Assembly (NCBI GenBank): GCA_965214705.1
Contig: CBDCCI010000002.1
Coordinates: forward strand, 544,001-608,000
DNA length: 64,000 nt
Direction of reading: 5' to 3'
Source of the DNA: Alphaproteobacteria bacterium
GTDB taxonomy: Bacteria > Pseudomonadota > Alphaproteobacteria > UBA828
Shown here: piece after piece, positions 2,117 to 60,514 of the stretch
How the letters are laid out: every line of letters begins with the position of its first letter
Numbering within the stretch: the stretch's first letter is position 1
Translations under genes and position numbers: made by a program
The notes under the pieces: model-generated
What the model was told of the DNA's origin: nothing
The model's input: the letters and a program-made list of their open reading frames with translations, nothing else
The model's database searches: none

Positions 2117-2182
2117 TGCATGACCAGGGAAAAGTGCAGGCGGGACCGCGACCGAAATCTGCGGCCCCGCCTGCGTGCCGCC

Positions 2183-6612: not shown

Positions 6613-6915
6613 CGGCGCGTGGAGGCCGAACGCGCGGGCGTGGCGGAGATCCTCCGCCGCGCCGGCGCCGCTTTCCGTGAGCGCCACAAAGGGCGCATCG
6701 ACGCCGCCCGGCTCAAGGTCATGGGCGCCATCGAGGCGTGCCGCACCGCCGTGCTCGGCGGCCACATGTACGCCTGCGAGGGCTGCGGGCGCGAGCATCC
6801 GCTCTTCAGATACCATGAGCACGGTGGCATCGAATCGCGTCTGGCAGTTAGAGAAGCTCGGAGAGAAGGCCAGCACCTTCTCTCCGAGCGGAATCGTCAA
6901 CAACGGAGTGGACGG

Positions 6916-18281: not shown

Positions 18282-19093
18282 GGGCCTTACTGTCCGTTCT
18301 ATGGTATAAGTGACAATTCCGGCTGCTGGGTGGGGATTGTCTGTCGCGCTGCGGCGCGGAACGAGCGAAGCTGATTTGAGCGGCCACGCATGGCGAACCT
18401 GACACACCCTGACAAACTCCACAATCCCGCCTTGGACTTGTGCGGCGTCTGTCACGGGCAATGACACGGCCCATGGAGAGCGCGGCATGTGCGGCATAGC
18501 CGGTTTTCTTGCAAGAGGACCTCTCACGTCGGAGGTAGCGTCCTCGATCGCCCATGAGATGGCGGACACAGTCGTGCATCGAGGTCCCGACGATGCTGGG
18601 GTCTGGCTGGATCTCGAGGCGGGAGTCGCTCTCGCGCATCGCCGTCTGGCCGTCGTCGATCTGTCGCCGGCCGGTCACCAGCCGATGCTGTCCGGTTCCG
18701 GGCGAAGGGTGATCGTCTTCAATGGCGAGATCTACAACCACCGGGAGCTCAGACGACGGCTCGACGCCCATCGTCAGAGCATCTTCTGGAGGGGGTATTC
18801 CGATACGGAAACGTTGCTGGCAGGCATCGAGTGTTGGGGATTGGAGGAGGCGTTGCGGGCATCCACCGGCATGTTCGCCTTTGCCCTCTGGGATCGCGGG
18901 GACAGGGCCCTCTATCTGGCCCGCGACCGGGTCGGCGAAAAACCGCTCTACTACGGTTGGCAGAACGGTGTGTTCCTGTTCGGGTCAGAGTTGAAGGCGC
19001 TCGCGGCGCATCCTGCGTTCGCGGGAGACATCGACAGAGGCGCGCTCGCCCTGCTCTTGCGCCACGGTTATGTTCCATCCCCTTGGTCCATTT

Positions 19094-38600: not shown

Positions 38601-38660
38601 GGCGGAGAGTCAGCCCCGAAATCAGATCCGCTGGAAGTATGGGGGCCCGATACCGCTTAC

Positions 38661-42962: not shown

Positions 42963-43022
42963 GGCGGAGAGTCAGCCCCGAAATCAGATCCGCTGGAAGT
43001 ATGGGGGCCCGATACCGCTTAC

Positions 43023-44315
43023 CTTGAGCTTCGCCAACTCCGGCGGGATGGCCCCGGTCAAGGCGTTGAGGCCGAGATGCAGATACTCGAGGCTCGCCAG
43101 ATTTCCCAGCTCGGGCGGAATGCGACCGGTGAGCCGATTGCGTCCAAGGGACAGCGAAACGAGGCGGTCCAGGCGGCCAAGATCCGGGGGGATACGGCCG
43201 TTCAATCCAAGTCCCGCCAGATCCAGCCCGGTGACGCGTCCCTCCGGGCCTTCCACCGTCACGCCCTGCCAGCCGTTGACGGGCACGGTGCGGCTCCAGT
43301 TGAGGGCAATGTCTCCGGCCAGGATGTCCCTCGCCGCCAGCAGTACGGCGCAGTTCGCGCCAGGATTGGCGGTCGGCGAAGGGTCGCAGAACAGCTTCCT
43401 CTCAAGCATGTCGCCGGAAACGTTCCGCAACATCGACCACTGGGACAGACCGTCGGAGAATGCCGCAACGCCGACGAAGCCTGCAATCCCGACAAATCCT
43501 GTGGCGGCCAAAGCCAGGACGAAGGCCCTTGGTTTGCCGCGGACATTGATCAACAGGAACAAAACCATCAACGCACCGAGTATGACCAACGCGGTTCTGG
43601 ACGCCGACCCCAGGCTTGCGGCGACGCCGGCGGCCAGGCCCAGCCAACCGAGCGTGCGCGGCCCGCCATTGGTCAGGAACGCCGCGGCGAGTCCCACCGT
43701 CATGCAGGCGACCAAGCCGGCGTTGTTGGGCTCGGTGAAAGCACCGGTCAGGCGGAATGGAATTCTGTAAGGCGCCAGGATGCCGAGATCGCGCAGAATC
43801 GGCGAAGCGAGAATGATGACGCAGCTCGAAATCAGGACGACAAGCACGCCCTGCAACAACCGGTCGGTGCCGACTCGTTCCAGCACCGCGCGGCCACCGA
43901 CTGCGGCAGCCACGAACACACCAAAACCAAGGACCATAAATCGCAGTGTCCCAGCCGTGCCCGGCCGCCAGTCCGCCTCGTCCATCACGGCAAAGCCGAT
44001 CGCCAGATAGGATGCCACCGCACCGAGCAACAACACGCCGGGCATTCCGCCCACTGTGCTCAGGACAGAGAGGCGTGAGCCGGACTTCCGCCAGGCAAAC
44101 AAGCATCGAATTCCAACCAGGCCCACCAGGATGACTATGCATGCCATGGTCGCCCGTGCGATGACGCCTACGACTTGCGGCATCCCCCAAAGATGCAGTT
44201 CCCGCGCGCCGGTCAGAGCGATGACAGCCAACGTCCAGAACGCGACCGCGATCAGCGCGGTCTGGAGCGCCTCGCTTCGGCGCAGCAGCAAGACTGGATG
44301 TCTGAACAGGAACAT
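43023..44315 (-). CDS. N-terminal fragment: multi-TM ligase-like domain plus the first LRR module
   Basis: Several hydrophobic helices, then NCAVLLAARDILAG...WQGVTV and LRRs. Confidence 0.85.
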
Positions 44316-44630
44316 TTTCTGGATCTGAGGGGCCGACGCTCAAAAATGAATACTAACCCGAAATTGAGGTGTGTGCGCTGGCGTTTTGCCGTGAAAATGT
44401 CTGGGATCGGCGCAAACCAAGTCGTTGCGACGCTGGGGTCCATCCGGCGGCGGCAGTTCACCGTCGGCAACAGGCGCCCGGTTGGGTGGCTACGAGCGGT
44501 AGACTTCCCCGATGTGGCCCGAAGTCGGCCTCCGCCTGAGCGCGTCTACATTTTCATTCTACGGGGTGGCCGAGCCGCCGGCCATGAAAGTTATCGACAG
44601 CGCGCCGCTGATCCAGCTAAAGCCCCAAGA

Positions 44631-46977
44631 TTACGTTTCATACTGCACCTCACTACTCCCTTGGTCGGCAAGATCGGGGAAACGTCCCTGTCTTGGGCTT
44701 GGCCCTGGTTGTTCGGTCGGTGGTGGATCGAGGATTTCGTACAGGTATCGGGGTCTGTCGCTGTAGGCGTGTGCGCGCAGCAGCCCGGCCTTGTGCCATC
44801 TGTAGACCGTCGTGTCGGACACCCCGAATCGGTCGGCGATTTCCAGGGCCGTCAACAGACCGCGTTCGCGCAGTCGATCATGGCGGGACTTGAGAGCGTA
44901 GTTGTCCCGGACCACCTTCACCGATATCGGGTCGAAGGCGTGGCCGTGTCCGGTTCGGTACCCGCGCTGGTTGAGAATCGCTGCGATCTCGCCATCGGTG
45001 TGATCGTTCATCAGCCTGTCGACCTCGGCGACGACCTCGTCGCTGGTCTTGATGAGCTGGGAAGGGTGAGGGTCCGGCGTCCAGGCGATCTGTCGGGTCG
45101 CGCCGCCGCGCAGCCGCACTCCCAGGCTCCGCGTGGCCTTGGTCAGGGTCACGTCCTCGATCAGCAGCCGCGCCATCCGCTTGCGCTCGCGGTGCGGCGT
45201 CGCCGGATCGTTCCACAGGCGGGGGAAGTCGCTGGCCAGGGCGAGGATTCGCTCGCGTTGCGCGTCGTCCAACCCCTGGCCCGGTTCGGCGCGGCTGCGC
45301 TCGCGCTCGCGCTGGGCCTCGTCGAGTGCGCGAAGCTTCGCGTTCCACTCCGCCTCCAGCACGTCGGCCACCATCCGGTTGTCGGGATGGGTCTGCATGA
45401 ACCGCTGGCGCGCCAGGTCGGCTTCCTCGCGGGCGCGCTGCACCCGCTGAGCGCGCCACAGATCCGCCTCTCCGGCGCGCGCGGCGAGTTCGTCCTGCAC
45501 CTGCAACGCGACGTCCAGCGTGAGCGGTGTCATCAGCTCGACCAGCAGCGCGCCAACCGCCCGGTCGATGGCGCCGCCGGATATGCTCTGGCAATTCTCC
45601 GCGCTCGCCGTCTCGACCCTTTCGCGATTGCACAGGTAATGGGGGCTTTGTTGCCCTTTTGCGGTTCGGTAGCGCACCGTCATGTTCCTGCCGCACACGC
45701 CGCAGATCGCCAGGCCCTGCAGCAGCGCAGACCCTTCGCGCGGGGCGCCGCGTCGCTGCGCTGCGGCGTGCGCCTGGGCATTGTCCCGGAGCTGGCGCTC
45801 ATTCTGCTCGAAGCGCTCCCAGGTGATGTAGCCCGGGTGGGCATCGCGCAGCAGCACCGTCCATTCCTCTCGCGGAACGCTTCTGGTCTCGATACCGCCG
45901 CCGGGACGGCGCCGGCTGCGGCTGCGCCCGTACGCGAAAGCGCCGGCGTATCGCGGGTTGTGCAGAAGCCCCCGCGCGCGCGAACCTCAGGGGCTTCCAA
46001 TGCAGCTCACCGCTGTGGGGCCCGCCTTGAGGACGGTACGGAAACAGCAGCTTCTCGTTGTTGAAATGCCTGACCGTGGCGCTGGCCGAGCCGGTCCGCG
46101 CGAAGGTGTCGAATATCAGGCGCAGGCTGTGCTGCACCTGCTCGTCGGGGTCGAGCACCACCTGGCCGAGCGGGTCGTAGACCAGCCCCACCGGCAGCGG
46201 CACCTTCAACTCCCCGCGCTTGGCCTTGGCCAGCACTCCGCCACGCAGCCGGATGCGCATCATATGCAGCTCCGCTTCCGACATGGTCCCTTTGAGCCCG
46301 AGCAGGAGCCTATCGTTGAAGTCGCCGGGGTCGTAGACACCGTCCTCGTCGAGGATGAGCGTCTCGCTCAGGGCGCAGATCTCAAGCAGGCGGTGCCAGT
46401 CTCAGACTTCCTGACCCCGAGCTGGAAAGGTGTGGGCGGTCCCTATAGTCATGATCTTGAGGTTGCACACAAATCTCGTCTCCCTGGGCCTCGCGGCTCC
46501 GTGCGGCACGGCGGCCGCCAGAAATTTTGAGTTGATACGGAACGTCTTGCCGGAGCCACCCGCCGCAACCGGAAAGCCGCAGAAACTGGCGCTTTCGTCT
46601 CGTCTCGCTGGCCGGATCTCCACGCAAACCGTGTCACCCAAAATTATCAGAGGTCAGGAAGTCTGAGTCTGTGGAGTTGCGCGCGAGGCGGCTGACCTCA
46701 AGCCCGAGCACGATCCCGGCCCGGCCCATGCCGACCTCGGCGACCAGATGCTGGAATCCCTCGCGGTCGGCGTCGGCACCGGAGAGACCGAGGTCTTTGT
46801 CGATCACGACGATGCTCTCGGTCGGCCAGCCAGCGCCACGGCCCGCTCCCGCAGCGCGTACTGGCGGCGCGTACTCTCGCCATGGTCGAGCACCTGGCGC
46901 TGGGTAGACTGACGCACGTACAGATAGGCATCGCGGCTCAGGTGGCTCGCGGCCACCTTCTGGTGAGCGGTGTTCAT
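44631..46977 (-). pseudogene. Large serine recombinase with MITE insertion and frameshifts
   Basis: YLYVRQST catalytic motif, MSEAELH, CGVCG Zn ribbon, ends EVQYET; frame breaks near 46830 and 45975. Confidence 0.88.
46403..46665 (+). mobile_element. 263-bp MITE related to the element at 19094-21628
   Basis: TIR CAGACTTCCTGACC; 5-bp duplication AGTCT; its 3' ~45 bp resemble the parent's right end. Confidence 0.9.
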
Positions 46978-47276
46978 GCTGCTTCCCTCCCCATATGACC
47001 CCTGAGCATGGCGATCAAAACGTCGATCGCCGACGTCTCGACCCCGGTGGGCAACGGCCCGGGCGAGGCCCCCGCACGCACAGCGATCGTCGGAGCGGGC
47101 AGTTCGGCGAAGGCATGCAGCCAGGCCGCGACGCCGCGCAGCGCCACTACGGCGAGCCCGTGGCGATCGTCGCCGGCGCCGGGCTCGACGGCATGACGGC
47201 GCATCCGCTCGTAACCGTGCCCGTAGGCGGAATGTTCCGCCGCGGGGAGCGCGGCGCATGGCGGGCGGCGCATCAT
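46974..47276 (-). CDS. Hypothetical protein of the serine recombinase element
   Basis: YERMRRHA...GLAVVALRGVAAW; homolog of 52841..53134; ATGA-coupled on both sides. Confidence 0.75.
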   Translation of the reverse strand: MMRRPPCAALPAAEHSAYGHGYERMRRHAVEPGAGDDRHGLAVVALRGVAAWLHAFAELPAPTIAVRAGASPGPLPTGVETSAIDVLIAMLRGHMGREAA

Positions 47277-47734
47277 CGGCGTTTTTTTCCCCGCGCGATG
47301 GCGCGATCTATGCTGCTGCGATGGATCGAGATGCCGAAGCGTTCGCGCACCAGCTCGACCAGCGCGGCGGCGGTCAACTCCGGCTGCTTGCTCTTCGCCG
47401 TCTGCAACGCCTCGACCACCTCGTCGCTGAGCTTGTGCGCACGCCGCGGTCCCGGCCGGTCCGGCAGCAGGCCCGGCAACCCGCCAGCCTCCCAGGCGCG
47501 CTGCGCTTGATACCAGGTGGGCCGCGAGACGCCGAAGCTGGCGGCAGCGTGGCTCACCGGCACGCCATCCTCGCGCACCCGGCGCAGCATCTCGTACCTG
47601 ACCTGGAGCAGGTCGCGCGGGTCGAAGAACGGGTTCGACAGGAACAGCTCGTCGCGCACCGCCTCCGCGCGCGGGTTCAGGCAGCCGTGCTGCTTGAGGG
47701 AGCGAGACTTGGCGTCGGCGGGGCGTCTGGCCAT
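47273..47734 (-). CDS. HTH protein of the serine recombinase element
   Basis: FFDPRDLLQVRYEMLR, FGVSRPTWY, GPRRAHKL; homolog of 52383..52844. Confidence 0.85.
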   Translation of the reverse strand: MARRPADAKSRSLKQHGCLNPRAEAVRDELFLSNPFFDPRDLLQVRYEMLRRVREDGVPVSHAAASFGVSRPTWYQAQRAWEAGGLPGLLPDRPGPRRAHKLSDEVVEALQTAKSKQPELTAAALVELVRERFGISIHRSSIDRAIARGKKRR

Positions 47735-47916
47735 CGCGCGGGCTCCGTGGGGAAAGGAATGTAAATATATTTATACAACATCCCAGAGCGCAATCAACCC
47801 CCTTCTGCCTGCCTGTCACCGAAAACACGCGGAAATGTCGCACATATGCGTCACTCCTTGCCGTCTTCCCGGCCGCCGCGACACCCTGTTCCCGCCATGC
47901 ATACGCAAAAACATTC

Positions 47917-48267
47917 TTACACATGCGGCAAAATCTCCTTGACAGTCCCCGCCCCACCCTCGGCCTCCCTGCCGGCACGGCCGGCCCCCTCCAGGCCGGC
48001 CAGCAATGACCCCAGCGCGAGCAGATCAGACACCCGAAACGCCGACCGGCCCGACCCCACCCGCACAAACGGATCCTCGCAGGCAACGCTGGTCCAGCCT
48101 CGCCGTATGCTGCGCAGCACGCCGTCATCTCCCGTGTAATGCACCAACTCCACTCCCATCACCGACTTGATCTCGACCAGTGGGAACTCACGGCCGTGAA
48201 GCGGATGAAACGGGTGCGTCACCCGGACGAGCTGCCGCTCGACGCATCCGAGGGGTGCAGTTGAGGG
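47917..48267 (-). CDS. Small VTHPFHP-motif protein (DUF5372-like), lacking its own ATG
   Basis: VTHPFHPLHGREF...WTS...DPFV...GRSAFR; homolog of 51851..52201. Confidence 0.7.
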   Translation of the reverse strand, partial: PSTAPLGCVERQLVRVTHPFHPLHGREFPLVEIKSVMGVELVHYTGDDGVLRSIRRGWTSVACEDPFVRVGSGRSAFRVSDLLALGSLLAGLEGAGRAGREAEGGAGTVKEILPHV

Positions 48268-49418
48268 CCCAGTCCCATGATCGTGGCGACGGCCTTTCCG
48301 ACCCTCTCGGCGGCGGCTTCGATGTCGCGGTCGCCGAGGTGGGCGTAGCGGAGCGTCATGCGCGAATTGGAGTGGCCAAGCAGGCGGGAGACGACAGGGA
48401 CCGGCACGCCGTTCATGACCGCGTGGCTCGCCACGGTATGGCGCAGGTCGTGAAGCCGGCAGTCCTCGATGCCGGCCTTGCGGCGGACCCGGTACCAGAG
48501 AGAGAGTTCGGACCCGCGCGGCCGCGACGGATGGCGCGGCGAAGGGAACACGAAGCGGCTTTCTCCCCGCTTCTGGCGGTCCAGGATGCTCCTGGCCTGG
48601 GCGTTGAGGGGAACCTTTCTCGGCCCGGTCTTGCTGTCGGCAAGCATCAGCGCGCCGCTCTGGACCTCGGACCAGCGGAGCCCGGCGATTTCTCCCCTGC
48701 GGCATCCGGTGAGAAGCAGCAGGCGGATAATGTCGGCCTGCGGCCTGAACCGCTCTCCCCGCTTGGCCTCTTCGTCGAGGACGGCGTGAAGACGCGCGAT
48801 CTCCTCGCGCGACAGGAAGCGCGTCATCGGCGGCCGGCGGTTGGGCGCGATGCCCTGCGCGGGGTTGCTGTCGAGGAGGCCGCGGGCGATGGCGAGGTTG
48901 AAGATCGAGCGAAGCAGCTTGAGCGCGTTGTTGGCGTTGCCGGGCGCGGTGCGGCTGAATGCGTCGAACCAGCGCCTGACCTGCGCAGGCGTTATGCGCT
49001 CGAGCGGGGTCGCGCCGAAGGCGGGGAGGAGGCGGGTATCGAGCAGGCAGGCATAGGACTTCCCGGTCGCGGGCTTGCAGCGCCCGAAAATCGCCTCCTT
49101 CCATGGACCCTCCACGAACTCGCGGCACAGGGGGGCGGCGGGCGCCGGACGGACGGGCTTGTCCGTCTCCGGGCTTGCCCGGCGCTCATGGCACTCCCGC
49201 CGCGCCTCCTCCACGGTCCTGGTCGAGACCGGGCCGAGGGAGACGCGCCTGGAGCGCCCCCCGGCGTGCTCCAGCAGAACCCAGGTCTTTCCGCCGCTCG
49301 GACGGACCCGGACCCCGAGGCCGGGCACGCTCTTGTCCCAGACGGCATACTCCCGCGCGCGGGGGCGGAGACCGGCGACGGCGTCGTCGGTGAGCTTCCT
49401 GCGTTCCCTTGCCGGCAC
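48219..49418 (-). CDS. Tyrosine integrase, second of a tandem pair; C-terminal tail runs into the serine recombinase element
   Basis: LLLTGCR, DSKTG, HDLRH, LLGH, LRYAH. Confidence 0.92.
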   Translation of the reverse strand: MPARERRKLTDDAVAGLRPRAREYAVWDKSVPGLGVRVRPSGGKTWVLLEHAGGRSRRVSLGPVSTRTVEEARRECHERRASPETDKPVRPAPAAPLCREFVEGPWKEAIFGRCKPATGKSYACLLDTRLLPAFGATPLERITPAQVRRWFDAFSRTAPGNANNALKLLRSIFNLAIARGLLDSNPAQGIAPNRRPPMTRFLSREEIARLHAVLDEEAKRGERFRPQADIIRLLLLTGCRRGEIAGLRWSEVQSGALMLADSKTGPRKVPLNAQARSILDRQKRGESRFVFPSPRHPSRPRGSELSLWYRVRRKAGIEDCRLHDLRHTVASHAVMNGVPVPVVSRLLGHSNSRMTLRYAHLGDRDIEAAAERVGKAVATIMGLGPQLHPSDASSGSSSG

Positions 49419-49421
49419 GGC

Positions 49422-50543
49422 TCAGCTCCCCAGCACGGCGCCGATGGTCTCGGCGGCCTGCCGCGTCATCGCGTCGGCCGGGTGGGCATACTTGAGGGTG
49501 GTCCCCGGATCGGCATGTCCGAGCAGTCTGCCGATGGCGAGCACGGTCTCGCCATCGCGCAGCGCGATGCTGGCATGGGTATGCCGGAGATCGTGAAGAC
49601 GGGCGTCGCCGAGATCGGCCTCCGCCCGGATGCGCCACCAGAAGCTGTCCAGCCAGTGTTCGCAGTGCGCGCGTCCGGTATGCGGCGACGGAAAGACCCA
49701 ACGGCCGGTCCGCGCGATGCCGTCGAGGACGGCCCGCGCGGGCGCGGACAGCCATACGGTCCGGGGGCCGGTCTTGGAGTCGCGCAGGAACAGGCGGCCC
49801 TCGCGGTAGTCGGACCAGCGGAGCGTCAGGATCTCGCTCTTGCGGCATCCGGTCAGCAGGAGCAGGCGGATCGCGGCGACCTGCCCCGGACACGCCTCGG
49901 CGTGCGCCGCGAGCGCCCGGGAGAGCCTCCGGATCTCGTCGTCCGACAGGAACCGCTCGCGCCCCTTGCGGCGGTATCGCCGGATGCCCCGGCAGGGGTT
50001 GGAGCCCTCGGGCCGCAGCCCCATCCGTTCCGCCCCCTTCATGACGACGGAGAGGATCGGCATGGACCTGTCGGCGGCGGCCGGCGTGGCGGCCAGCGAG
50101 GCGAACCAGTCGCGCACCTCGCGCCGGTCGATATCGGCGACATTGCGCCCCGCGAAATGGGGCATGATCTGCTTGCGGAGGTAGCCCCGGTTGACACCGA
50201 GCGTGCGCGGCTTCCATGTCCGCTCGTACTGCCGGAATACGGTCTCCGCGACGGCCTCGAAGAGCGCCTCCTCGGGACGGGGCGGCGCGGTGTCGCCCCG
50301 CCTGATCGCGGCCAGCATCCCGCTCGCGCGCGAGCGCGCCTCGATCACGCCGACCGCCTCGGCGTCTCCGACGATCTTCCACACTCGTTTGCCGCGATGC
50401 TGGCAGTGGACGAAGAAGCGCTTGCCGCCCGAGGGCAGCACCCGGACGCCGAAGCCCTTGAGCTTGCCGTCGCGGACGTCGCGGGCCGTGCTGCGGGGCT
50501 TGAGCGCCCCGATGCGGGCGTCGGTGAGGTTGGTTTTGGGCAT
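49422..50543 (-). CDS. Tyrosine integrase, first of a tandem pair
   Basis: GFGVRV arm domain, LLLTGCR, HDLRH, LLGH, LKYAH. Confidence 0.92.
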   Translation of the reverse strand: MPKTNLTDARIGALKPRSTARDVRDGKLKGFGVRVLPSGGKRFFVHCQHRGKRVWKIVGDAEAVGVIEARSRASGMLAAIRRGDTAPPRPEEALFEAVAETVFRQYERTWKPRTLGVNRGYLRKQIMPHFAGRNVADIDRREVRDWFASLAATPAAADRSMPILSVVMKGAERMGLRPEGSNPCRGIRRYRRKGRERFLSDDEIRRLSRALAAHAEACPGQVAAIRLLLLTGCRKSEILTLRWSDYREGRLFLRDSKTGPRTVWLSAPARAVLDGIARTGRWVFPSPHTGRAHCEHWLDSFWWRIRAEADLGDARLHDLRHTHASIALRDGETVLAIGRLLGHADPGTTLKYAHPADAMTRQAAETIGAVLGS

Positions 50544-50662: not shown

Positions 50663-51024
50663 CGCACGGTGTGGCCCTCGAGCACGGCGCGGTGGCCGAT
50701 ATTGGCGGCGATTGTCGATTTGCCGACGCCGTTGGGGCCGACCAGGACGACGTTGGCGGCCTCGTTGAGGAAGTCGAGGCTCATGAGGTCCTCGACAGCC
50801 ATGCGGTCGCAACGCCTGGGCCACGCCCAGTCGAAGTCGGCGAGCGGCTTGAACTTCCCGAGGCGGGCATCGGCGAGGCGGCGCTTGAGGCTGCGGCTGC
50901 GCCGCTCTTCCTCTTCCCAGGCGATGAGGGTGGGCAGCCAGTCGGTCTCGCCGACGTCGTCCCAGTGGGCGACGAGGCCGTGCAGGCCGAGAGCGCGGGC
51001 ACGATCCATGAGGGTGTCGGTCAT
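50663..51024 (-). pseudogene. istB: IstB of a second IS21, truncated
   Basis: LADFDWAW and GPNGVGKS; breaks after EGHTVR. Confidence 0.85.
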
Positions 51025-51850
51025 TCTTCGCTGTCCTCCTCTTCTGCTTCGCCGGCCAGGTCGTCGTACTCCGTCAGGTCGTGGTCGCGGACGGCGATGT
51101 CGCGCACCTTCGGGTCCTTGGGCAGGTCGACCGGGATGGGCGGGGGCTTGCCCCGCTGTTCGCGGCGCCGGGTGAGGCTCAGGCGCACGGCGTTGGGATG
51201 GGGGACACCGCGCTGCAGGGTTTCGTCGATGCCCGCCTCGAGCTCGGCGGCACCGTACTTGTCGAGCAGGCGCAAGAGCGCTGCGACGATGGAACCGAGA
51301 TGGCCGCCGCGTTTGGCGGCGTCGGCGAGCAGTTGCTCGCTGTTGGGCGCGGCCCGGACCAGACGATCCTGGCCGCGCAGGCGCCGGGCACGCCGCTTCT
51401 TCCTGGCCAGTTCGTCGATGTGCTCGGGGTTTTCGACAGGGATCCCCTTGTCGAAGCTGCGCGGATGCGTGGCGATGACGTCGGCGCCGTCGAGAATGCG
51501 CACCTCGTCGAGCGTGGCGAGGACGACGAGGGTGCGCTTCACGTGGGTGTGGGGCACGGAATAATCGTTGCTGTCGAACCTGGCGTAGGGGGTCTTGCCG
51601 ATGGTGACCTCGACCCGCTCGTCGGCGGGGAAACGGTCGTCGGGCAGCCCGATGAGGGAGCTGCGCTCCTTGTCGAAGGCCTCGCGCACGGTGATGGAGC
51701 GGTTCTCGGGCCAGGGGCGGTCGGCGGCGATGCCCTCGCACCAGGCCTCGGCCTGGGCGTTGAGATCGTCGATGTCGCGCCACTCTCGGGCGGCGAAGAA
51801 GCTCTCGCGGACGTAGCGGATCGCCCGCTCCACGCGTCCCTTGGACCAAG
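51021..51850 (-). pseudogene. istA: IstA C-terminal part of a second IS21
   Basis: KGRVERAIRYVRESF and FDSNDYSVP; 5' part missing. Confidence 0.85.
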
Positions 51851-52201
51851 CATTTAACTGCACTCGATCCACAGCATGAGGGTCGAACCTTTCGGGTGAC
51901 GCACCCGTTTCATCCCCTCCACGGACGGGAGTTCGAGCTTCTTCAGAGCCGGGTGTGCCGGGGGATAGAACGGGTGGATTACGTCGACGGGGACGGGGTG
52001 GTGCGTTCCCTCACAGCGGCGTGGACCAGTGCTGGGGCCAAGGATCCCTTCGTCATCGTCGCGTCTGGTCGCTCGGCCTTTCGGCTTCCGGATCTGCTGG
52101 CTCTGGCTGCACTGTTGGATGGCCTGCACGAGGATGGTTTGTTTGGGAGTAGCGCTGGCGGTGGCAGCGGCACTGTAAAGAGTATTACGCCGCATGTGTA
52201 A
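51851..52201 (+). CDS. Small VTHPFHP-motif protein (DUF5372-like), lacking its own ATG
   Basis: Frame open from the element end: HLTALDPQHEGRTFRVTHPFHP. Confidence 0.7.
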   Translation, partial: HLTALDPQHEGRTFRVTHPFHPLHGREFELLQSRVCRGIERVDYVDGDGVVRSLTAAWTSAGAKDPFVIVASGRSAFRLPDLLALAALLDGLHEDGLFGSSAGGGSGTVKSITPHV

Positions 52202-52320
52202 GATATATTTTGCCCAATGCGTTGGAGCGCCCTTCCCCTTTCCGGCAAACTGTCTTGTCTATATCGGGCGTTGTTCATACAGATTCTTCAGATCACGAGA
52301 AGAACTGAGGCAGGACCAGC

Positions 52321-52348
52321 TTGACACCGCATATGATTGCGGCATAAT
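52321..52348 (+). promoter_or_regulatory. Candidate sigma70 promoter for the HTH-hypothetical-recombinase operon
   Basis: TTGACA-16-CATAAT with inverted repeat CCGCA/TGCGG in the spacer; copy A has TTGATT-16-TATAAA at the equivalent place. Confidence 0.55.
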
Positions 52349-52382
52349 ATTCCTTACATTCGTTGCAGATGGAGGCCACCCC

Positions 52383-52844
52383 ATGGCCAGACGTTCAGCC
52401 GATGCAAAGACCGATGCCCTCAAGCAGCATGGCTGTCTGAACCCGCGTCCCGACGCGGTTCGCGACGAGCTGTTCCTGTCCAACGCATTCTTCGATCCGC
52501 GCGACCTGCTCCAGGTCAAGTACGAGATGCTGCGCCGTGTGCGCGAAGACGGCGTGCCCATCAGCCGTGCCGCTGCGAGCTTCGGCGTCTCGCGGCCCAC
52601 CTGGTACCAGGCACAGCTCGCCTTCGAGGCAGGCGGCCTGCCGGCGCTGTTGCCGCACCGGCGCGGCCCCCGGCGAGCCCACAAGCTCAGCGACGAAGTG
52701 GTCGAGGCGTTGCGCGCGGCAAAGAGCGAACAGCCGGAACTCAGCACCCGCGAGCTGGTCGACCTCGTGCGCGAGCGCTTCGGCCTGCGGGTCCATCGCC
52801 GCAGCATCGAACGCGCGCTCGCGCGGGGAAAAAAACGCGCATGA
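52383..52844 (+). CDS. HTH protein
   Basis: GGAGG SD; homolog of 47273..47734. Confidence 0.85.
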   Translation: MARRSADAKTDALKQHGCLNPRPDAVRDELFLSNAFFDPRDLLQVKYEMLRRVREDGVPISRAAASFGVSRPTWYQAQLAFEAGGLPALLPHRRGPRRAHKLSDEVVEALRAAKSEQPELSTRELVDLVRERFGLRVHRRSIERALARGKKRA

Positions 52845-53134
52845 CGCCGACACCGCTGGCGCTTCCGTTGACGCATTCGGCGTATGCGCAGGGCTACGAG
52901 CAGATGCGCCGCCACGCGCTCGAGCCCGGCACGCCGCTCGACCGACAGGGGCTCGCCGTGATGGTACGGCGCGGCATCGCCGCCTGGCTGTTCGTGTCCG
53001 CCGAGCTGCCCGCCGCGCCTGCCGGCGTGTGCGCGGGCGCGTCGCCCAAGGCACTGCCCGCCAGGGTCGAGAGGCCGGTGATCGACATTCTTCTCGCGAT
53101 GGTCAAAGTCCACATGGAAGGGGAGTTGGCATGA
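52841..53134 (+). CDS. Hypothetical protein
   Basis: YEQMRRHA...GIAAW; ATGA-coupled. Confidence 0.75.
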   Translation: MTPTPLALPLTHSAYAQGYEQMRRHALEPGTPLDRQGLAVMVRRGIAAWLFVSAELPAAPAGVCAGASPKALPARVERPVIDILLAMVKVHMEGELA

Positions 53135-53860
53135 GTACTGCCCATCAGAAGGTGAGCACGAGCCACCTGAGCCGCCATGCCTATCTGTACGTGCGTCAGT
53201 CCACCCCGCGCCAGGTGTACGAGAATGGCGAGAGCACGCTCCGCCAGTACGCCCTGCGCGAACGGGCCGTCGCTCTGGGCTGGCCGACCGAGAGCATCGT
53301 CGTGATCGATAGCGATCAGGGGCTATCCGGCGCCGACAGAGACCGTGAGGGCTTCAAGCATCTGGTTGCCGAGGTCGGCATGGGTCGGGCCGGGATCGTG
53401 CTCGGCCTCGAGGTGTCCAGGCTCGCGCGCAACTCCACCGAGTGGTGCCGGCTGGTCGAGATCTGCGCCCTGAGCGAGACGCTGATCCTCGATGAAGACG
53501 GCGTCTACGATCCCGGCGACTTCAACGATAGGCTCCTGCTCGGGCTGAAAGGGACGATGTCGGAGGCGGAGCTCCATTTGCTGCGCGCCCGGCTGCGCGG
53601 CGGAATCCTCAATCGAGCCAAACGCGGCGAGTTGAAGATGCCGCTGCCACTGGGGCTGGTGTACGACCCGCTCGATCGTGTGGTTCTCGATCCCGATGCG
53701 CAGGTTCAACACAGCCTCAGGCTGCTCTTCGACACCTTCACCCGCACCGGCACGGCCTGCGCCACGGTGAAGCACTTCCGTGACGAAGGACTGCTCTTTC
53801 CCCGCCGGCCGCGCAGCGGACCGCACAAGGGTGAGCTGCATTGGCAGCCGCTCAAAGGTT

Positions 53861-53902
53861 AAGGGTTGGGCAGGCTCTCTCTCGAGAGCCTGCCCAACCC
53901 TT
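53861..53902. repeat. Perfect 19-bp-arm hairpin at the element's 3' end
   Basis: AAGGGTTGGGCAGGCTCTC-tctc-GAGAGCCTGCCCAACCCTT. Confidence 0.92.
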
Positions 53903-54164
53903 TTGAACGAAGCCGCGGGCCACGAGAGGCGAAGTTGAGCTATGTGGAAAGTGCGCTGATGTCAGCGTCAGGCGGCATCCACCGGCAGCAGAGTTGCGCA
54001 TAAAATCGACGCTCGCGCCGGTCTTTCGGCAGGCATGCGGGCGCACGCTGCGAGGACTGAGCGGGGTGTGAGCCGAGGGCTGTCAGCCCGGCTCAAGCGG
54101 AGACAGGTTCGGTCGTGCGTCGGCGCTTTGGCGCCGTTGCGCGGGGCCGAAGCGAGCGGGCGTC

Positions 54165-55406
54165 TCACGGTTTCCCCCTGTGGGTCGGCGGCAGCGCCGG
54201 CGGGCCGCGCGTCGAGCGGGGCTCATGGCGGCGGCGGATTTCGCGGACGAGGCGCATGACGCCGCCGCAGTGGGGGCAGGCCACGGGCGCGGTGCCGATC
54301 TCGGGCTCTTCGTCGGGCTCGGCCCGAGCGCCGTCCACGCTTCCCTCGGGGGCGGCGCAGCCGAGGGCGCCGAGAGCCTGGCGTGCTCTCTCCAGCGTGC
54401 TGGCGCGGCAGCCGTTGGCGAGGATGCCGAAGTAGCGAATGCGGTGCATGCCGTCCGGCAGGACGTGCCTCAGGAAGCGGCGGATGAACTCGTCGGCGCT
54501 CACGGTGGCGATGCCGTAGCGCGGCTTTCTCTGCCCCGGCGCCTTGGGCTTTCGGTGGCGGAAGGAGACCGTCTCGCCGTCGAAGGAGACGATGCGGCTG
54601 TCGGAGATGGCGATCCTGTGCGTGTAGTGCGAGAGGTACCGGAAGACCTGCTCAGGCCCGCGGAAGGGCCGCTTGGCGTAGACCACCCAGTCCCTGGCCC
54701 GGGCGGCGGCAAGCGTGGCGTGGAACTCGCCGGGATTGGCGAGGTGGGCGAGGGTGCCGTGGAACTCCAGGTCCCCCCGGCCGTGGGCGCGGGCGAGCTC
54801 CTCGAGGAAGAGGCGGCGGAACAGGCTGCCGAGGACCTTGACGGGGGCGAGGAAGGTGGTGCTCCCCGTCTTCCACTCGCCACTGTCTACGTCGAAGCCC
54901 GCGTTGGGCACGACCACGTGCAGGTGCGGGTGGAAGCGGAGCTTCTGATCCCAGGTATGGAGGACCGCGGTGCCGCCGATGCGCATGCCGCCGTGGCGGG
55001 GATCGGCGGCGATGGTGCGCAGGGTCTCGGCGACGGCCCGGAAGAGGATGTCGAACACCACCCTGCGGTTGCAGAAGGCAATGGCGGCAACCTCCTTGGG
55101 CAGGGTGAAGACCACATGGAAGTAGGGCACCGGCAGGATGTCCCCGGCGCGCTCCTCGCTCCAGAGGTTGGCGGCGAGACCCTGGCAGGTGGGGCAGTGG
55201 CGGTTGCGGCAGGAGTTGAAGAGCGGATGCTCGCGCCCGCAGCCCTCGCAGGCGTACATGTGGCCGCCGAGCACGGCGGTGCGGCACGCCTCGATGGCGC
55301 CCATGACCTTGAGCCGGGCGGCGTCGATGCGCCCTTTGTGGCGCTCACGGAAAGCGGCGCCGGCGCGGCGGAAGATCTCCGCCACGCCCGCGCGTTCGGC
55401 CTCCAC
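54165..55406 (-). CDS. IS91-family (Y2/HUH) transposase
   Basis: NSCRNRHCPTC, LHTW...HPHLH, YLSHY, RIRYFG, C-terminal CPHCG. Confidence 0.93.
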   Translation of the reverse strand: MEAERAGVAEIFRRAGAAFRERHKGRIDAARLKVMGAIEACRTAVLGGHMYACEGCGREHPLFNSCRNRHCPTCQGLAANLWSEERAGDILPVPYFHVVFTLPKEVAAIAFCNRRVVFDILFRAVAETLRTIAADPRHGGMRIGGTAVLHTWDQKLRFHPHLHVVVPNAGFDVDSGEWKTGSTTFLAPVKVLGSLFRRLFLEELARAHGRGDLEFHGTLAHLANPGEFHATLAAARARDWVVYAKRPFRGPEQVFRYLSHYTHRIAISDSRIVSFDGETVSFRHRKPKAPGQRKPRYGIATVSADEFIRRFLRHVLPDGMHRIRYFGILANGCRASTLERARQALGALGCAAPEGSVDGARAEPDEEPEIGTAPVACPHCGGVMRLVREIRRRHEPRSTRGPPALPPTHRGKP

Positions 55407-55412
55407 GCGCCG

Positions 55413-56291
55413 TCAGTTGCGCAACGCTGCGAAGCCTGAGATCGGGTGGTCGAGGCCCTCGAACATCTTGCCGGTGACGCGGGCGTAGTGACGGGTCGTG
55501 TTCGCGCTTCGATGGCCGAGCATGTCCCGGATCACCTCGATATCGCCGCCGCGCTCGAGGAGATGGGTCGCCGCCGAATGGCGCAGGCAATGGAAGGTGT
55601 AGCTGCGGTCGAGCTCGGCAATGTCGCGCGCCCTCCTGAAGGCGGCCTGCAAGGTCTCCGTTGCGATGGGCCTGTCGAGCGAGACGCCGTAGAAGAGCCA
55701 GCTCGTCGGACGCGGCCAGATGTTCCTGTAGTAGACGCGCAAGTAGTGGATGACGATGTCCGGCAACGGTGCCATTCTCTCGGTGCCGCCTTTGCCGGAG
55801 GGGATGTGCAGCAGCTTCTTCTCCGACAGGATGTCGCCGACCTTGATGGCCAAGGTCTCGGAGATGCGGAGCCCGCCGCCATAGCCGGTGACAATGGCAG
55901 CACGGTGGCGGAGGTCGGGTGTCGCAAGGATGAGGTGCTCGACCTCCTGCTCCGACATGTAGCGCGGCAGCTTGCCGGGCTTCTTGCGGGAGCGCAGGCC
56001 GGCGACATGGTCAGGCCAGCCGAGTGTGTCGATGTAGAGGAAGTTCAGCGCGGCGAAGGAGACGTTGGTCGTGCCCGGACTGAGCCCCTTGTCGATCCGC
56101 CCCAGGTACCACTGGCGCACCTGCTCGGCGTCGAGCTCGTCCGGCGAGGCGTCGTAGTACCTGGCCAGGTTCTTGATCTCGCAGATGTAGGCCTTGGACG
56201 TGCTCGCGGCCAGATTGGCGATGCGGAGCTGCTCCTCCATGCGCTGGCGAAGAGGGGTGACGGTGTTCGTGTCGCACGCGGTCCCGGTCAT
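55413..56291 (-). CDS. Tyrosine recombinase
   Basis: Near-identical to 5734..6612; full R-K-H-R-H-Y set. Confidence 0.93.
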   Translation of the reverse strand: MTGTACDTNTVTPLRQRMEEQLRIANLAASTSKAYICEIKNLARYYDASPDELDAEQVRQWYLGRIDKGLSPGTTNVSFAALNFLYIDTLGWPDHVAGLRSRKKPGKLPRYMSEQEVEHLILATPDLRHRAAIVTGYGGGLRISETLAIKVGDILSEKKLLHIPSGKGGTERMAPLPDIVIHYLRVYYRNIWPRPTSWLFYGVSLDRPIATETLQAAFRRARDIAELDRSYTFHCLRHSAATHLLERGGDIEVIRDMLGHRSANTTRHYARVTGKMFEGLDHPISGFAALRN

Positions 56292-58027
56292 TATCGATCT
56301 CCCTGGATCGCGACGGCGCGCCGCCGGACCGATCCGGCGACGGTCCGTCGCAGGGGTCGATGCTAACCACTGGTGATCGGGAGGCTGCTGGGGATCCGCC
56401 ACCCGACGGGCGGAGCGCCACTGACGCAACCGGGAAGCGAACGCACAGAACAAACGGCACCCGCGACGCCTCGGAAATGAATGAACTCTACGCCGCTAAC
56501 TCCGCGTAGCGGCTTCGTTCAAGCTCTATCGGGTGCTGGAGGTGCTGCACAACCCACGATACGCCGGCGCCTTCGCGTTCGGGCGCCACTGCCACCGTCG
56601 GCGTCCCGGTGGCGGTGTTGAAGTGAAGCGGCTCGCGCGCGAGGAATGGACCGTGCTGCTCCCCGACGCGCACCCGGGCTATATCTCCTGGGAGCGCTTC
56701 GAGGCCAATCAGCGCCAGCTCCGGGACAACGCTCAGGCCTATGGCGTGCCCCGGCGCAGCGCTCCACGCGAAGGGCCGGCGCTGCTCCAGGGCCTGGCCC
56801 TCTGCGGGGTTTGCGGCGACCGCATGACCGTGCGCTACCACACCCGCCGGGGGCGGCAGGTGCCGGACTACATGTGCCAGCGGGAAGGCATCGATACGGC
56901 GAGCCGGATATGCCAGCAAATCGCCGGTGCCGGTATCGACCGGGCAATCGGCGAACTGCTGGTCGAGTTGATGACGCCGGTCGCGCTGCAAGTGGCATTG
57001 GAGGTACACGCCGAACTTTCCGCGCGTGCTGAAGAGGTCGACGCCTGGCGTGCCCAGCAGGTGCAGCGCGCCCGCGAAGAGGCTGATCTGGCGCGCCAGC
57101 GCTTCATGCAAACCCATCCCGAGAACCGCATGGTGGCCGACGTGCTGGAGGCGGAATGGAACGCCAAGCTTCGTGCTCTGGACGAGGCACAGCGCGATCT
57201 CGATCATCGCCGCGCCGAGCAGAGCCACGAGCTCGGGGAGCAGCAACGCCAACGAGTCCTCGCGCTGGCGACGGACTTTCCGCGCTTGTGGAACGACCCT
57301 GCAACGCCGTACCGCGAGCGCAAGCGGATCGCGCGATTGCTGATCGAGGACGTGACCCTGGTCAAGGGCAAGGATCTCCGCCTGGGAGTGCGCCTTCGAG
57401 GCGGAGCCACCCGCCAGCTCGTCATCGAGCCCGAGGCGCCGGCGTGGCAGCGTTACAAGACCCCGCCCGAGGTCATTGCCCAGATCGACGAGCTACTCGA
57501 CGATCACACCGACGCCGAGATCGCAACGATCCTCAATGAACGGGGATGCCGGACTGGCTATGGCGCCCCCTTTCGAGCGCTGCGCGTGCAGGCAATCCGC
57601 GGCGACTACAAGCTTAAATCACGCTACGACCGACTGCGCGCCCGCGGCTTGTTGACCGTCGACGAAATGGCCACCAGGCTCGCGGTCTCGACCACGACGA
57701 TCAAGAAGTGGCGCGAGATCGGGCTGCTGAGCGGACACGTCTACAACGACAAGGGCAGCTATCTCTATGAAATGCCCGACAACCCGCCGACCAAGCAACA
57801 AGGCCGAAAGCGCGTATAGAGCGCTCAACCCCAACATCGTGTGCCAACCGACTAATGAGGTGCAATATGAAGCGTAGCCCTTAGCTTTCGCATGTAACAC
57901 GGTCTGGAGTTTCTGAACTTTGTCTGACCCTGTTAGGTTCTCACCAGTGGTCACGCCTTGCTCCCTTTCCATGCTGTTCTCGAACCAGGGCTCCTTTCCT
58001 CCACCGGAATTACTCGGCTTCTGCGGT

Positions 58028-60051
58028 GTCGGGTCGGAGGAGGCGCCCCGCGAGGCTAGCCTCCGTCCGCCGCTCAAACGGCCCGTACGGTTTTCCCGTA
58101 AGCCGCTTTCACAAAGGTGTCTCAACGAAGGTTCAAGGACGGAACCAGTGAGATCAGGCGAACAAGCCCGTATTCGTCGATCAGCTTGCGCTCCGGCAAC
58201 TGTTTCCAGCCAGCGTTGCGCCAGCGCTTGCGACGATGCGACCAGAGCCGCCGCACGATCCAGCCGTCAAGCTGGTGGAAGAGCCCGCGGACGTGGGCCT
58301 TGCAATAGTATTGGCCCCATCCCCGAATGATCGGGTTGATCTCGTCAATCAGCTCCTGCGTGCTGACAGGAGCCTTGCGCCGGGTACGCTGGCGAATCTG
58401 GTCCTTGAAGTGCCGGATGGATTTCTCACGCGGAACCGCGTAGCGCGCTCCCCCGCGAACCCCGCTCTTGATCTTGGAGGACGACAGCCGGAGAGGCCGC
58501 TCGCCCTGCTTGATCTTGTAGCCGAGGAACTCAAACCCGTGCCTGACATGGACAATGCGGGTCTTCCCGGCGTTGAGGGACACACCCAGCTTTGCCAGAA
58601 TCCGCCTGGCCGTCTCCAGTGCTGCGCGGGCTTCCCCGCGTGTGCGGCACGTGATCAGCCAATCATCGGCGTATCGCGTTAGTCGATAGCCGCGACGACG
58701 CATTTCCCAATCGAACGGGGTCAGCAAGATATTGCTGAGCAGCGGTGAAACGATGCCGCCCTGCGGAGTGCCCTGTTCGGTCGGCAGCCTCTTACCGTCG
58801 GCCACCACCCCGGCCGTGAGCATCTGCCTGAGCAGACCTAATACCCGGCCATCCGAGACTCGCTGGTTGACGAGTTCGAGGAGCTTTTCGTGGTCCACGG
58901 ACCCGAAAAAGTCTTTCAAATCCGCATCGAGAACCCACTCGTTGCCCTCGTCCAGTTCCCTCCATATCTTGCGTAACGCTCCATGGGCAGACCTTCCTTG
59001 CCGGTACCCGTAGTTGGCATCGTCGAACACCGGCTCGAAGATCGGTTCCAGCCGGTTCAGCAGCGCCTGCTGGCACACCCGGTCGTAGATTGTCGGGATG
59101 CCGAGCGGGCGGAACTTCCCCGGCTGGCCCGCCTTGGGGATCAGGCATTGGAGAACCGGCTGCGGGTGATACTCACCGTCCCGCAACTCCCGGTGCAGGC
59201 GATCGAGATTTGCATCCAGCGATGCCTCGAACGCCGCTAAATCCTCTCCGTCCACGCCACCGGCACCCCGGTTGCGCTTCACCTTTTCCCAGGCCACCTC
59301 AAGGTTCTTCCGCTTGTACACCTTGTCCACCAGTGAGTGGACCTTCCTGTCACCCGCCGGGTTGATCCAGTCGATGAGTCTCCTCGGGCCATGATGTCCG
59401 GGTCTTTCGCTCAAGGAACTTGTCCGCGTCATGGTCCTTACTCACTCATCGCTGTCTCTCGCCGACCACCTCTGCCAACCGACTTCCCCGGCCCACACGG
59501 CCGCCGCTCGCGCGGTCACCCGGCTTTCGCCGGGCTTCAGGTACTATTCGGTTGTCCGATTGCTCGCCGCGCATCCTTTCCCATTTCGCCTTTCGGCTTA
59601 TAGGGTCCGTTATCCCGGTGCCACCCGAGAACGCGGCGAGCCCTCCTGGGGTCACGTCCAGATCTTCCGTACCGTGCCGCTCGCAAACACCTTGGTGCGA
59701 CGGGTGGGTAAGAACGCCTTCGCCGCCATAGTGCCGGCTCGACCTTGCCCCGTCTTTGGCCGACCGATTCATCATGGGGTGGCCCCCTCGATTACGGCCC
59801 GGTACTTCTCCGCAAGCCCTTCAGATTCCACCTCGCGGTGGACACCCTGCCTTCCGGTTGTCTTTCGACAGTGGACCAACTTAGCTCCTCCCTTGGCTGT
59901 CTCCGCCGTTTCCGGCTTCGTGCCCGTTTAGAGTTTCGCTTATCGGCTCACTCCGGCCAGTGACGAATTACCCCCACTTTTGGATATGGCGCCCCTTACC
60001 CGAGCGCCAGTGGGACTTGAACCCACCTGATCTGGGCGCTGCCCAGCACAC
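58028..60051 (-). mobile_element. Inner, apparently complete group II intron
   Basis: 5' GTGTG; domain V GAAAGCGGCTTACGGGAAAACCGTACGGGCCGTTT; 3' ...CCGACCCGAC; candidate EBS1 ACTATG at 59727-32. Confidence 0.88.
58122..59432 (-). CDS. ltrA: Group II intron reverse transcriptase/maturase, no endonuclease domain evident
   Basis: GAGGVDG, RPLGIP, GTPQGG, RYADD, FEFLG, IRGWGQYY. Confidence 0.95.
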   Translation of the reverse strand: MTRTSSLSERPGHHGPRRLIDWINPAGDRKVHSLVDKVYKRKNLEVAWEKVKRNRGAGGVDGEDLAAFEASLDANLDRLHRELRDGEYHPQPVLQCLIPKAGQPGKFRPLGIPTIYDRVCQQALLNRLEPIFEPVFDDANYGYRQGRSAHGALRKIWRELDEGNEWVLDADLKDFFGSVDHEKLLELVNQRVSDGRVLGLLRQMLTAGVVADGKRLPTEQGTPQGGIVSPLLSNILLTPFDWEMRRRGYRLTRYADDWLITCRTRGEARAALETARRILAKLGVSLNAGKTRIVHVRHGFEFLGYKIKQGERPLRLSSSKIKSGVRGGARYAVPREKSIRHFKDQIRQRTRRKAPVSTQELIDEINPIIRGWGQYYCKAHVRGLFHQLDGWIVRRLWSHRRKRWRNAGWKQLPERKLIDEYGLVRLISLVPSLNLR

Positions 60052-60514
60052 ACTACGAGCCCATCCGCCACCCTGCCGGCCCAGCCTGCCCCTCACGGGG
60101 TTCCGGTTGGTGTGTGCGCACCGCCGACAGGGCTTCCCGTGTTGCTACCTCATTCCTCTTGCATGCATGCCAGCGTCAATACCCCGGCGGGTGCGAGCCG
60201 GTGCATGTATCGCTCTCTTCCCGGTCGCCAGCGGCCTTCCCCTTTTCCGCGCAGGGTCGACACCCGCATTGCCCTTTTCGAGGCCTGCTCGACGTTCGCT
60301 CTCGCTCCGGCCTGCATGCTCGCTGAGCCGCCTGAAGCGGCCCTTCTTGCCAAAGTGCTTCAATCCATGTCGTTGCCTCCATGAACCGCTCTGGCTGCTA
60401 CCAGCTGGAGCGATAGTTGCTGAGCGGGATTTGCACCCGCTGAAATGAGGCGCCCTTTCACGGCGCACGCGGAAGTCGGGTTATGGTGCCCAGAACCCGA
60501 AGGACGGATCAGCC

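Follow-up and report, generated by a model that had tools for sequence, protein, structure and literature searches.

A stretch of 64,000 nt from an alphaproteobacterium of the lineage UBA828 (GenBank assembly GCA_965214705.1, contig CBDCCI010000002.1, positions 544,001 to 608,000 of the forward strand), called the window below, contains two copies, A and B, of a mobile element that carries a large serine recombinase (LSR) gene. Copy B lies at 51841-57882 on the plus strand and has four co-directional genes, which encode a DUF5372 protein, a helix-turn-helix (HTH) protein, the product of a small open reading frame (ORF) and the LSR. We consider, with a probability of about three in four, that B is a broken copy of an LSR element whose joining site splits its first gene, DUF5372, and that the start codon of this gene is regained only when the element is excised as a circle.

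The body of the DUF5372 gene is located at 51843-52201 on the plus strand (stop codon 52199-52201). Its frame is open from 51851 to the stop, and it has no Shine-Dalgarno (SD) sequence or start codon of its own apart from a GTG at 51896. The product matches Pfam PF17342 (DUF5372) over model positions 1-77 of 78 with 78.2 bits against a gathering cut-off of 25 (E 4.8e-22), and the PF17342 model begins at the Val of the motif VTHPFHP. A sigma-70-like promoter (TTGACA, 16 nt, CATAAT; 11/12 matches) is located at 52321-52348 on the plus strand, upstream of the HTH gene (52383-52844, plus strand, 153 aa), whose product matches Pfam HTH_32, HTH_29, HTH_28 and HTH_23. The small ORF (52841-53134, plus strand, 97 aa) overlaps the genes on both sides. 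It had no match in Pfam, NCBIfam or PHROGs; the ORF at the same position in a related element on plasmid pNGR234a of Sinorhizobium fredii NGR234 (NC_000914.2, 33989-37258) is annotated as 'transposase'.

The LSR gene is in two parts. The N-terminal part, with the catalytic resolvase domain (Pfam Resolvase, E 8e-20), is at 53131-53859 and the C-terminal part, with the recombinase domain (Pfam Recombinase, 6.5e-11), a zinc ribbon (Zn_ribbon_recom, 2.8e-06) and a C-terminal HTH (weak HTH_17), is at 56533-57819 (stop codon 57817-57819), both on the plus strand. They are separated by an IS91-like insertion on the minus strand (53860-56522, left boundary approximate), which carries a Y2 transposase gene (54165-55406) and a tyrosine recombinase gene (55413-56453) and matches Pfam Y2_Tnp, Zn_Tnp_IS91 and Phage_integrase. 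Resolvase, Recombinase and Zn_ribbon_recom were the only Pfam matches above cut-off in the two LSR parts, accompanied by weak HTH_17 and MerR_1. Taken together, the two parts of copy B have the resolvase, recombinase and zinc-ribbon domains expected of an LSR.

Using both window copies as query, we scanned one genome per species for DUF5372. The scan matched 210 stretches; 123 of them code for a relative, and 80 were retained as loci. By homology with these 80 related loci, the core of copy B is the dinucleotide TT, located at 51841-51842 in the left junction (attL) and at 57881-57882 in the right junction (attR). At the right end of the element a 7-bp repeat (GTGCAGT; GTGCAAT in B) adjoins a start codon and is followed by 14 nt, the two core bases and the flank. 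At the left end the core bases recur and are separated by 14 nt from ACTGCAC, the reverse complement of the repeat. The right (P) arm of B (57857-57880, plus strand) has an SD-like GAGG at 57857-57860, the repeat GTGCAAT at 57860-57866, an ATG at 57867-57869 and 11 nt more, and the left (P') arm (51843-51863, plus strand) consists of the 14-nt spacer and the repeat ACTGCAC at 51857-51863. The assembled site, GTGCAGT-14 nt-core-14 nt-ACTGCAC, is 44 bp long with inverted repeats symmetric about the core, as is the case for sites of serine integrases, and the 14+2+14 spacing was constant across all concordant junctions. A short imperfect palindrome just inside the left arm, within the N-terminal extension of DUF5372, was observed in several lineages, among them loci L010 and L002 and copy A (approximately 48255-48225, minus strand), and is not obvious in B.

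A serine recombinase requires an identical 2-bp core at both junctions. The core varied by lineage (TT, CG, AC, TC, TG, CT, TA, CC), with left equal to right within each copy. For an unbiased test the anchors were picked blind to the core: of 82 motif sites examined, an anchor was found on the left in 77, on the right in 51 and on both sides in 50, which gave 45 distinct flank pairs. The left dinucleotide was the same as the right one in 35 of these 45 distinct insertions, while 10,000 shuffles gave a mean concordance of 11.3 and a maximum of 21; among pairs with at least one side other than TT, 19/29 were concordant.

The same TT was seen when an occupied site was compared with an empty one. 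An ISNCY-family transposase gene of S. americanum is uninterrupted across the point that is occupied by the pNGR234a copy, and TT alone is common to both junctions of this insertion, with no target duplication. A 2-bp core without target duplication is the signature of integration by a serine recombinase. Nine copies of a 3.39-kb relative in two related metagenome-assembled genomes (MAGs) have identical ends with unrelated sequence directly outside them. One of the nine is inserted in the opposite orientation in the same target-sequence family, consistent with a CG core that is palindromic and always at the same position.

When the right end is joined to the left end at the TT core, a complete DUF5372 ORF is assembled. 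The right end gives the SD sequence, the ATG and 11 bases, that is, codons 2-4 and two bases of codon 5; the TT finishes codon 5 and opens codon 6; and the left end, whose arm encodes codons 6-12, continues with W T K H L T A. The start signals and the first 14 nt of the ORF are therefore at the right end and the remaining approximately 119 codons at the left end. A reading made earlier from the letters of the window only (the sequence-only reading) had quoted these ends correctly (GAGG at 57857-57860, ATG at 57867-57869 followed by AAG CGT AGC C, and C AT TTA ACT GCA from 51851 on the left). Its proposal that a right-to-left join gives a DUF5372 ORF led by SD and ATG, in the same register in both copies, is borne out and holds across the family.

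The frame at the junction was conserved. With the blind anchors, all 36 of 36 sequences were in frame across the junction, and stops occurred there in none of the 36, compared with 31 and 28 in the other two frames. We also assembled a curated set of 39 distinct insertions in 30 lineages by dropping anchor scores above 3, discordant cores, duplicate flanks and L019, L026 and L044 (spurious right anchors); this set is not usable as a test of concordance, since discordant cores were removed from it. Stops were present in the junction frame of 0/30 lineages; the other two frames had them in 27 and 28. Length differences of the junction ORF were whole codons (29 and 31 compared with the usual 30).

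The start signals at the right end were conserved as well. The start codon was ATG in 28 of the 30 lineages and GTG in two, with an SD-like run upstream in 30/30. The left-arm triplet that mirrors the ATG was TCA in 24/36 sequences, so the ATG is not explained by symmetry of the arms. In 11/30 lineages the TGA stop codon of the LSR gene overlaps the right-end ATG as ATGA. Such an overlap is the usual mark of coupled translation, and its presence suggests that the last and the first gene become neighbours, since only then would it be sensible. A promoter-like site (at least 9/12 matches) was found within 260 nt past the DUF5372 stop in 23/30 lineages, mostly at a similar distance, and no terminator-like or promoter-like site was found between 57300 and 57900.

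These features point to the following model. The attachment site lies within the 5' part of the DUF5372 gene, so integration would separate the SD sequence and ATG from the body of the gene. In an integrated copy, transcripts would run from the HTH gene through the small ORF and the LSR gene into the flank, and the DUF5372 body would be left with no promoter, SD sequence or start of its own. In the excised circle, transcripts from the internal promoter would pass the LSR gene and the joint and enter a complete DUF5372 gene, and in the many lineages where the LSR stop overlaps the DUF5372 start, translation of the two may be coupled. A translatable DUF5372 gene would then be present solely in the excised circle or in a tandem dimer.

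A protein made by the excised form alone would best serve that form by favouring integration or by blocking re-excision. We tentatively propose, at odds clearly below even, that DUF5372 is a circle-specific cofactor which biases the recombinase to integration or otherwise reports the excised state. This proposal echoes the reading of split integrase genes as a built-in control of directionality in PMC8371274. Alternatively, DUF5372 might be an excision factor that the circle provides in trans to resident copies. The AlphaFold2 model of DUF5372, from an alignment of 73 sequences, had a mean pLDDT of 77 and a pTM of 0.52 and consists of an SH3-like barrel of five strands (residues 13-55) with helices after it. 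In a Foldseek search of the PDB the best matches were the SH3/KOW-like barrels of ribosomal eS4, NdhS and PsaE, with E 0.013 or worse, and no match to DUF5372 was found in PHROGs or NCBIfam.

The flanks of copy B come from two different genes. The left flank (51024-51840, minus strand) is the C-terminal part of an IS21-family istA gene and starts exactly at KGRVER (BLASTP to the other IstA of the window, E 5e-16; Pfam Mu-transpos_C_2). The right flank (57883-58027, minus strand) is part of an outer group II intron, comprising domain IV and codons 1-30 of the reverse transcriptase (RT) gene (57972-57883), and is cut off at ..AKAK. The 30-residue peptide of the right flank had no match in plasmids or in the loci, and a DNA search then gave its identity: over 97% of its length the flank shares 71% identity with the beginning of genes annotated as ltrA (group II intron RT), and the alignment extends through the codons of ..LHAKAK, where the element begins. 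The sequence-only reading was thus right that the flanks are unrelated, istA on one side and intron RT on the other, and that this points to a rearrangement.

An intron on a Buttiauxella plasmid is collinear with window positions 60052-60468 plus 57879-58027, so the intervening 2,024 bp (58028-60051) are a second intron nested in the first. The resulting twintron spans 57883-60468 on the minus strand, with the outer intron at 60052-60468 and 57883-58027, an Rfam D1-D4 match at 60300-60442 and the RT gene of the inner intron at 58122-59432.

The left flank of B is the canonical target half (antisense istA, broken between ..T and KGRVER) and the right flank is a different half (antisense intron RT, ending in ..AKAK). 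The 5' half of istA and approximately 430 codons of the outer RT gene are missing. The simplest account is that B is the remnant of homologous recombination between two direct-repeat copies, one in istA and one in the RT gene, with deletion of the DNA between them. It is unlikely that B instead represents a single insertion at a place where the istA and RT fragments already adjoined, or a deletion mediated by the recombinase. The window is dense in nested insertions and truncated genes, and by hand comparison 5/9 positions of the RT half-site agree with the usual right half, which would suit such an origin. However, a pre-existing istA/RT junction that recreated a usable site would be an extra coincidence, and by the established chemistry of serine integrases a reaction of attL with attR that involves two copies would yield either a tandem pair or the loss of both copies, and not a single chimera. 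The other IS21 copy of the window was considered as the empty site for B and rejected, as it has no nucleotide similarity and just 34% protein identity.

Several results weigh against a DUF5372 gene that depends on excision. In both B and A the Val codon of VTHPFHP is GTG, B has GAGGG 12 nt upstream of it, and an internally started DUF5372 protein from integrated B and A is possible. The 14+2+14 spacing is also demanded by binding of the recombinase, so the geometry of the site could partly explain why the frame is conserved. No intact attachment site, as in a circle or tandem junction, was found in the window and 83 loci (L001-L083). Among 120 listed database homologues of DUF5372, 110 carry the motif, and the 23-residue N-terminus of the junction type was present in 0 of these 110. 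The recombinase genes of both window copies are broken, so neither B nor A moves unaided. DUF5372 gave no functional lead, with no Foldseek match in the PDB at E of 0.001 or lower, no match below E 0.78 in a PDB profile search and no usable match in the protein atlas. Finally, 10 of the 45 insertions picked blind to the core were discordant; most of these were wrong right-anchor picks inside the LSR gene, and L024 and L026, both from one multi-copy genome, were still discordant when the loci were compared. These two loci, from one MAG with at least five copies, have an identical right flank despite disagreeing core dinucleotides at their two ends. The pattern suggests flank exchange between copies, like that proposed for copy B.

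The first of these points belongs to a rival account, in which the recombinase binding site gives rise to the SD-ATG at the right end and to the open frame as side effects, while DUF5372 starts at the internal GTG, the Val of VTHPFHP, and is made from the integrated element. We hold it to be improbable, even though the Val codon is the annotated start of 46 of the 110 motif-bearing homologues and the first position of the Pfam model, both window copies have the GTG, and the 7-mer beside the ATG is plainly a repeat of the binding site. Among the lineages, this Val codon is GTG in just 11/30 and GTC, GTA, GTT, ATC or ATA in the other 19, and 22/30 lineages have no in-frame ATG, GTG or TTG from the core to the Val codon, so there is no conserved internal start. 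On these counts the internal GTG was rejected as the general start of the family. A binding site would also leave unexplained that the left arm has no mirror-image counterpart of the ATG, that the sole substitute of the ATG is GTG (2/30), that the LSR stop overlaps it in 11/30 lineages and that stops are absent from the junction frame (0/30) and frequent in the other two (27 and 28).

It is also quite improbable that integrated elements express DUF5372 by borrowing a start or transcription from the flanking target gene, in which case expression would depend on the insertion site, not on excision. Apart from the 46 called from the Val codon, the motif-bearing homologues have more than 25 different N-terminal lengths and some begin in flank DNA; several do start at flank ATGs, for example six with 20 residues before the Val. 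Yet this very heterogeneity, with more than 25 lengths before the Val among the 110, speaks against a common start in the flanks. The TT-core lineages are antisense to their target gene, so no sense transcription would enter from it, and the conserved SD-ATG at the far end would remain without an explanation.

The sequence-only reading had placed the recombination points at 51851 and 57879. In that join the two ends share one C, the right end stops at 57879, the left end resumes at 51852 and the Val is residue 20. The join is open and in frame, but it is almost certainly wrong. It lacks the identical 2-bp core that a serine recombinase needs; in homologous copies with sharp ends the element extends past these points by 9-10 nt on the left and 2-3 nt on the right; the symmetry centre of the attachment site is TT; and the empty site of the relative breaks at the equivalent TT. 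The crossover is instead the TT at 51841-51842 and 57881-57882, by the 80 loci and the empty site. The Val is indeed the same residue of the assembled ORF in both window copies, but it is residue 24, four codons more than had been counted; the join first drawn and the true one differ by 12 nt, so the frame was right by luck. A crossover at the alternative AGC overlap, which would have led to a stop codon, did not occur either, as the sharp ends, the covariation of the core and the empty site all give TT.

Relatives of B are widespread. Members of the family are 3.3-3.4 kb in size and have four genes. The intact LSR orthologue of locus L002 (673 aa) matched a PHROG integrase (6.3e-53) and SPbeta SprA in the PDB (3.9e-10); its matches to XisF and CcrA were below the NCBIfam cut-offs, and its C-terminal HTH resembles those of the excisionase/MerR kind with weak E-values. 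The loci include 27 intact LSRs that are 51-83% identical to this orthologue. The HTH orthologue of L002 resembles the N-terminal DNA-binding part of IS630/IS481 transposases, again below the NCBIfam cut-offs. As labelled in the records, the hosts include Alpha-, Gamma- and Deltaproteobacteria, Acidobacteriota, Planctomycetota, Chloroflexota, Actinomycetota, Gemmatimonadota, a Syntrophomonadaceae bacterium and two archaea. DUF5372 matches were also found in 29 plasmid records of cultured bacteria, 11 of them from Sinorhizobium and others from genera including Caballeronia, Streptomyces, Paraburkholderia and Rhodococcus. Identical copies at different sites in the multi-copy genomes imply past movement, as judged from their sequences.

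Most of the reconstructed target sites of TT-core elements encode, on the opposite strand, the region of the catalytic-Glu motif of DDE transposases. Examples are ..SPQAKGRVERA, ..RKGKVES, ..DNAMAESF, ..NVFIERL and ..NLNPYSE, and the motif types are IS3-, IS21-, IS481/ISNCY- and IS630-like. TT-core elements thus appear to integrate antisense into the transposase genes of other transposons, that is, to target other transposons. The 'loose target specificity' that had been read from the two flanks of B is half right: TT-core lineages repeatedly use one motif. The RT site of B agrees with the typical right half-site at 5/9 positions by hand count. Elements of the TG-core group, including copy A, are sense insertions close to the 3' end of tyrosine integrase genes, and those of the CG-core group are in a repeated gene in either orientation.

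A wider proposal links two readings. In it, DUF5372 is made throughout this widespread family just in the excised circle and flips the LSR from excision to integration, and would thus be a directionality factor whose own gene is gated by that recombination; and the TT-core lineages are specialised transposon hunters, which insert antisense in the DNA of the catalytic-Glu motif (..K/N-G/A-x-V/I-E..) of DDE transposases and so disable the insertion sequences (IS) of the host and gain a safe, mobile landing site. Both parts being true at once seems doubtful to us, and we offer it as speculation.

Like the 'suicidal' tyrosine integrases of the SSV1 type in archaeal viruses and plasmids, whose gene is split by integration and whole only in the circle, the present element has its attachment site inside one of its own genes, which would be whole solely in the circular form. 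The review PMC8371274 reads the SSV1-type arrangement as directionality control and places it only in archaea. There the split gene is the tyrosine recombinase, whereas here the recombinase is a serine enzyme that integration leaves whole, an accessory gene is cut after codon 5 and the hosts are mostly bacteria; the element is therefore not of the SSV type.

End joining in a circle turns on an element gene in other systems too. Lyras and Rood are said to have described in 2000 a circle-specific promoter in Tn4451/Tn4453 (TnpX), and Tn4451 is an LSR element as well. Circle-junction promoters also occur in IS3-family elements. In ICEclc and ICEKp1, according to PMC13023037, circle-specific promoters switch on an element gene. 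In all these systems a promoter is assembled or placed upstream of the recombinase gene, whereas here a coding sequence with its ribosome-binding site would be assembled, and the gene is not the recombinase. A circle-joint promoter for the recombinase, as with TndX and TnpX, is not seen here: the operon has an internal promoter and the joint is downstream of the recombinase gene. DUF4368 is present in 63% of the TndX-like multi-targeting LSR clade (Durrant et al., 10.1101/2021.11.05.467528); it was not among the Pfam matches of either LSR part at E up to 0.01, so the LSR of B is not in that clade.

Like SPbeta, with SprA and SprB, the element has small accessory proteins beside its recombinase, and SprA is the closest solved relative of the LSR (3.9e-10). 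Unlike DUF5372, the known directionality factors of serine integrases are not split by the attachment site, and DUF5372 has no detectable likeness to solved proteins. What would be new, by our comparison, is that excision brings a whole translation start to an accessory gene; the cases described so far are recombinase genes that are split in archaea and promoters formed at the joint in bacteria.

The element on pNGR234a agrees with copy B in its four genes and in their order. Its core is TT, and it is inserted antisense in a transposase gene, which it breaks between ..PQAK and GRVER. In the record the four genes carry only the names 'DUF5372 family protein', 'helix-turn-helix domain-containing protein', 'transposase' and 'recombinase family protein', without annotation of a mobile element. 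In searches of the literature for LSR circle junctions, reconstituted ORFs, the NGR234 genes and transposase-gene targets we found no paper containing 'DUF5372' and no description of the element family; subscription journals and closed supplements were outside these searches, so a prior description is possible.

A start assembled at the joint would explain why the annotated starts of DUF5372 proteins are ragged or missing, as the true start would then be at the opposite end of the element, at a distance of 3.3 kb. With its four genes in 3.4 kb, its 44-bp site and apparently intact copies in the laboratory strain NGR234, the element would make a compact system for studying how a serine recombinase chooses its direction. 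The preference for the catalytic motif of transposases bears on competition among mobile elements and may partly explain the decay of IS elements in the window.

Copy A is the same element on the minus strand (approximately 44626-48277), with a TG core at 48277-48276 and 44627-44626, and is inserted 7 nt before the stop codon of a tyrosine integrase gene. It has 74-80% nucleotide identity to copy B. Its LSR gene is broken by an insertion of approximately 270 bp at about 46400-46670 and the frame is interrupted elsewhere too, leaving ORF pieces of 57 and 408 codons. The 270-bp insertion has terminal inverted repeats and is similar to miniature inverted-repeat transposable elements; the only similar piece elsewhere in the window is 47 bp long (21582-21628). 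Two tandem tyrosine integrase genes of the Arm-DNA-bind_3 type are located between copy A and the IS21 remnant (48219-50543, minus strand); copy A is inserted in the first of the two, and three loci (L036, L073 and L077) are inserted at the equivalent place in similar integrase genes.

Further IS91-like copies are present in the window at 1-4288 and 5503-9714. The latter appears to be interrupted, as a 497-codon ORF (6619-8109) merges Zn_Tnp_IS91 with IS110-family transposase domains. Four ORFs of equal length, 580 codons each, are located at 374-2116, 10703-12445, 35989-37731 and 40351-42093; the first, the sole one scanned, matches IS66-family transposase domains. Between copies of the 580-codon ORF are leucine-rich-repeat ORFs (32708-35905, 38660-40249 and 42987-44315) that look like pieces of interrupted genes. 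A 1,123-codon ORF at 19248-22616 fuses HTH and Transposase_29 domains to an asparagine synthase domain, with an ORF of the glutamine amidotransferase domain upstream of it (18487-19110), and the region 18487-22616 looks like an asparagine synthase gene split by a transposon.

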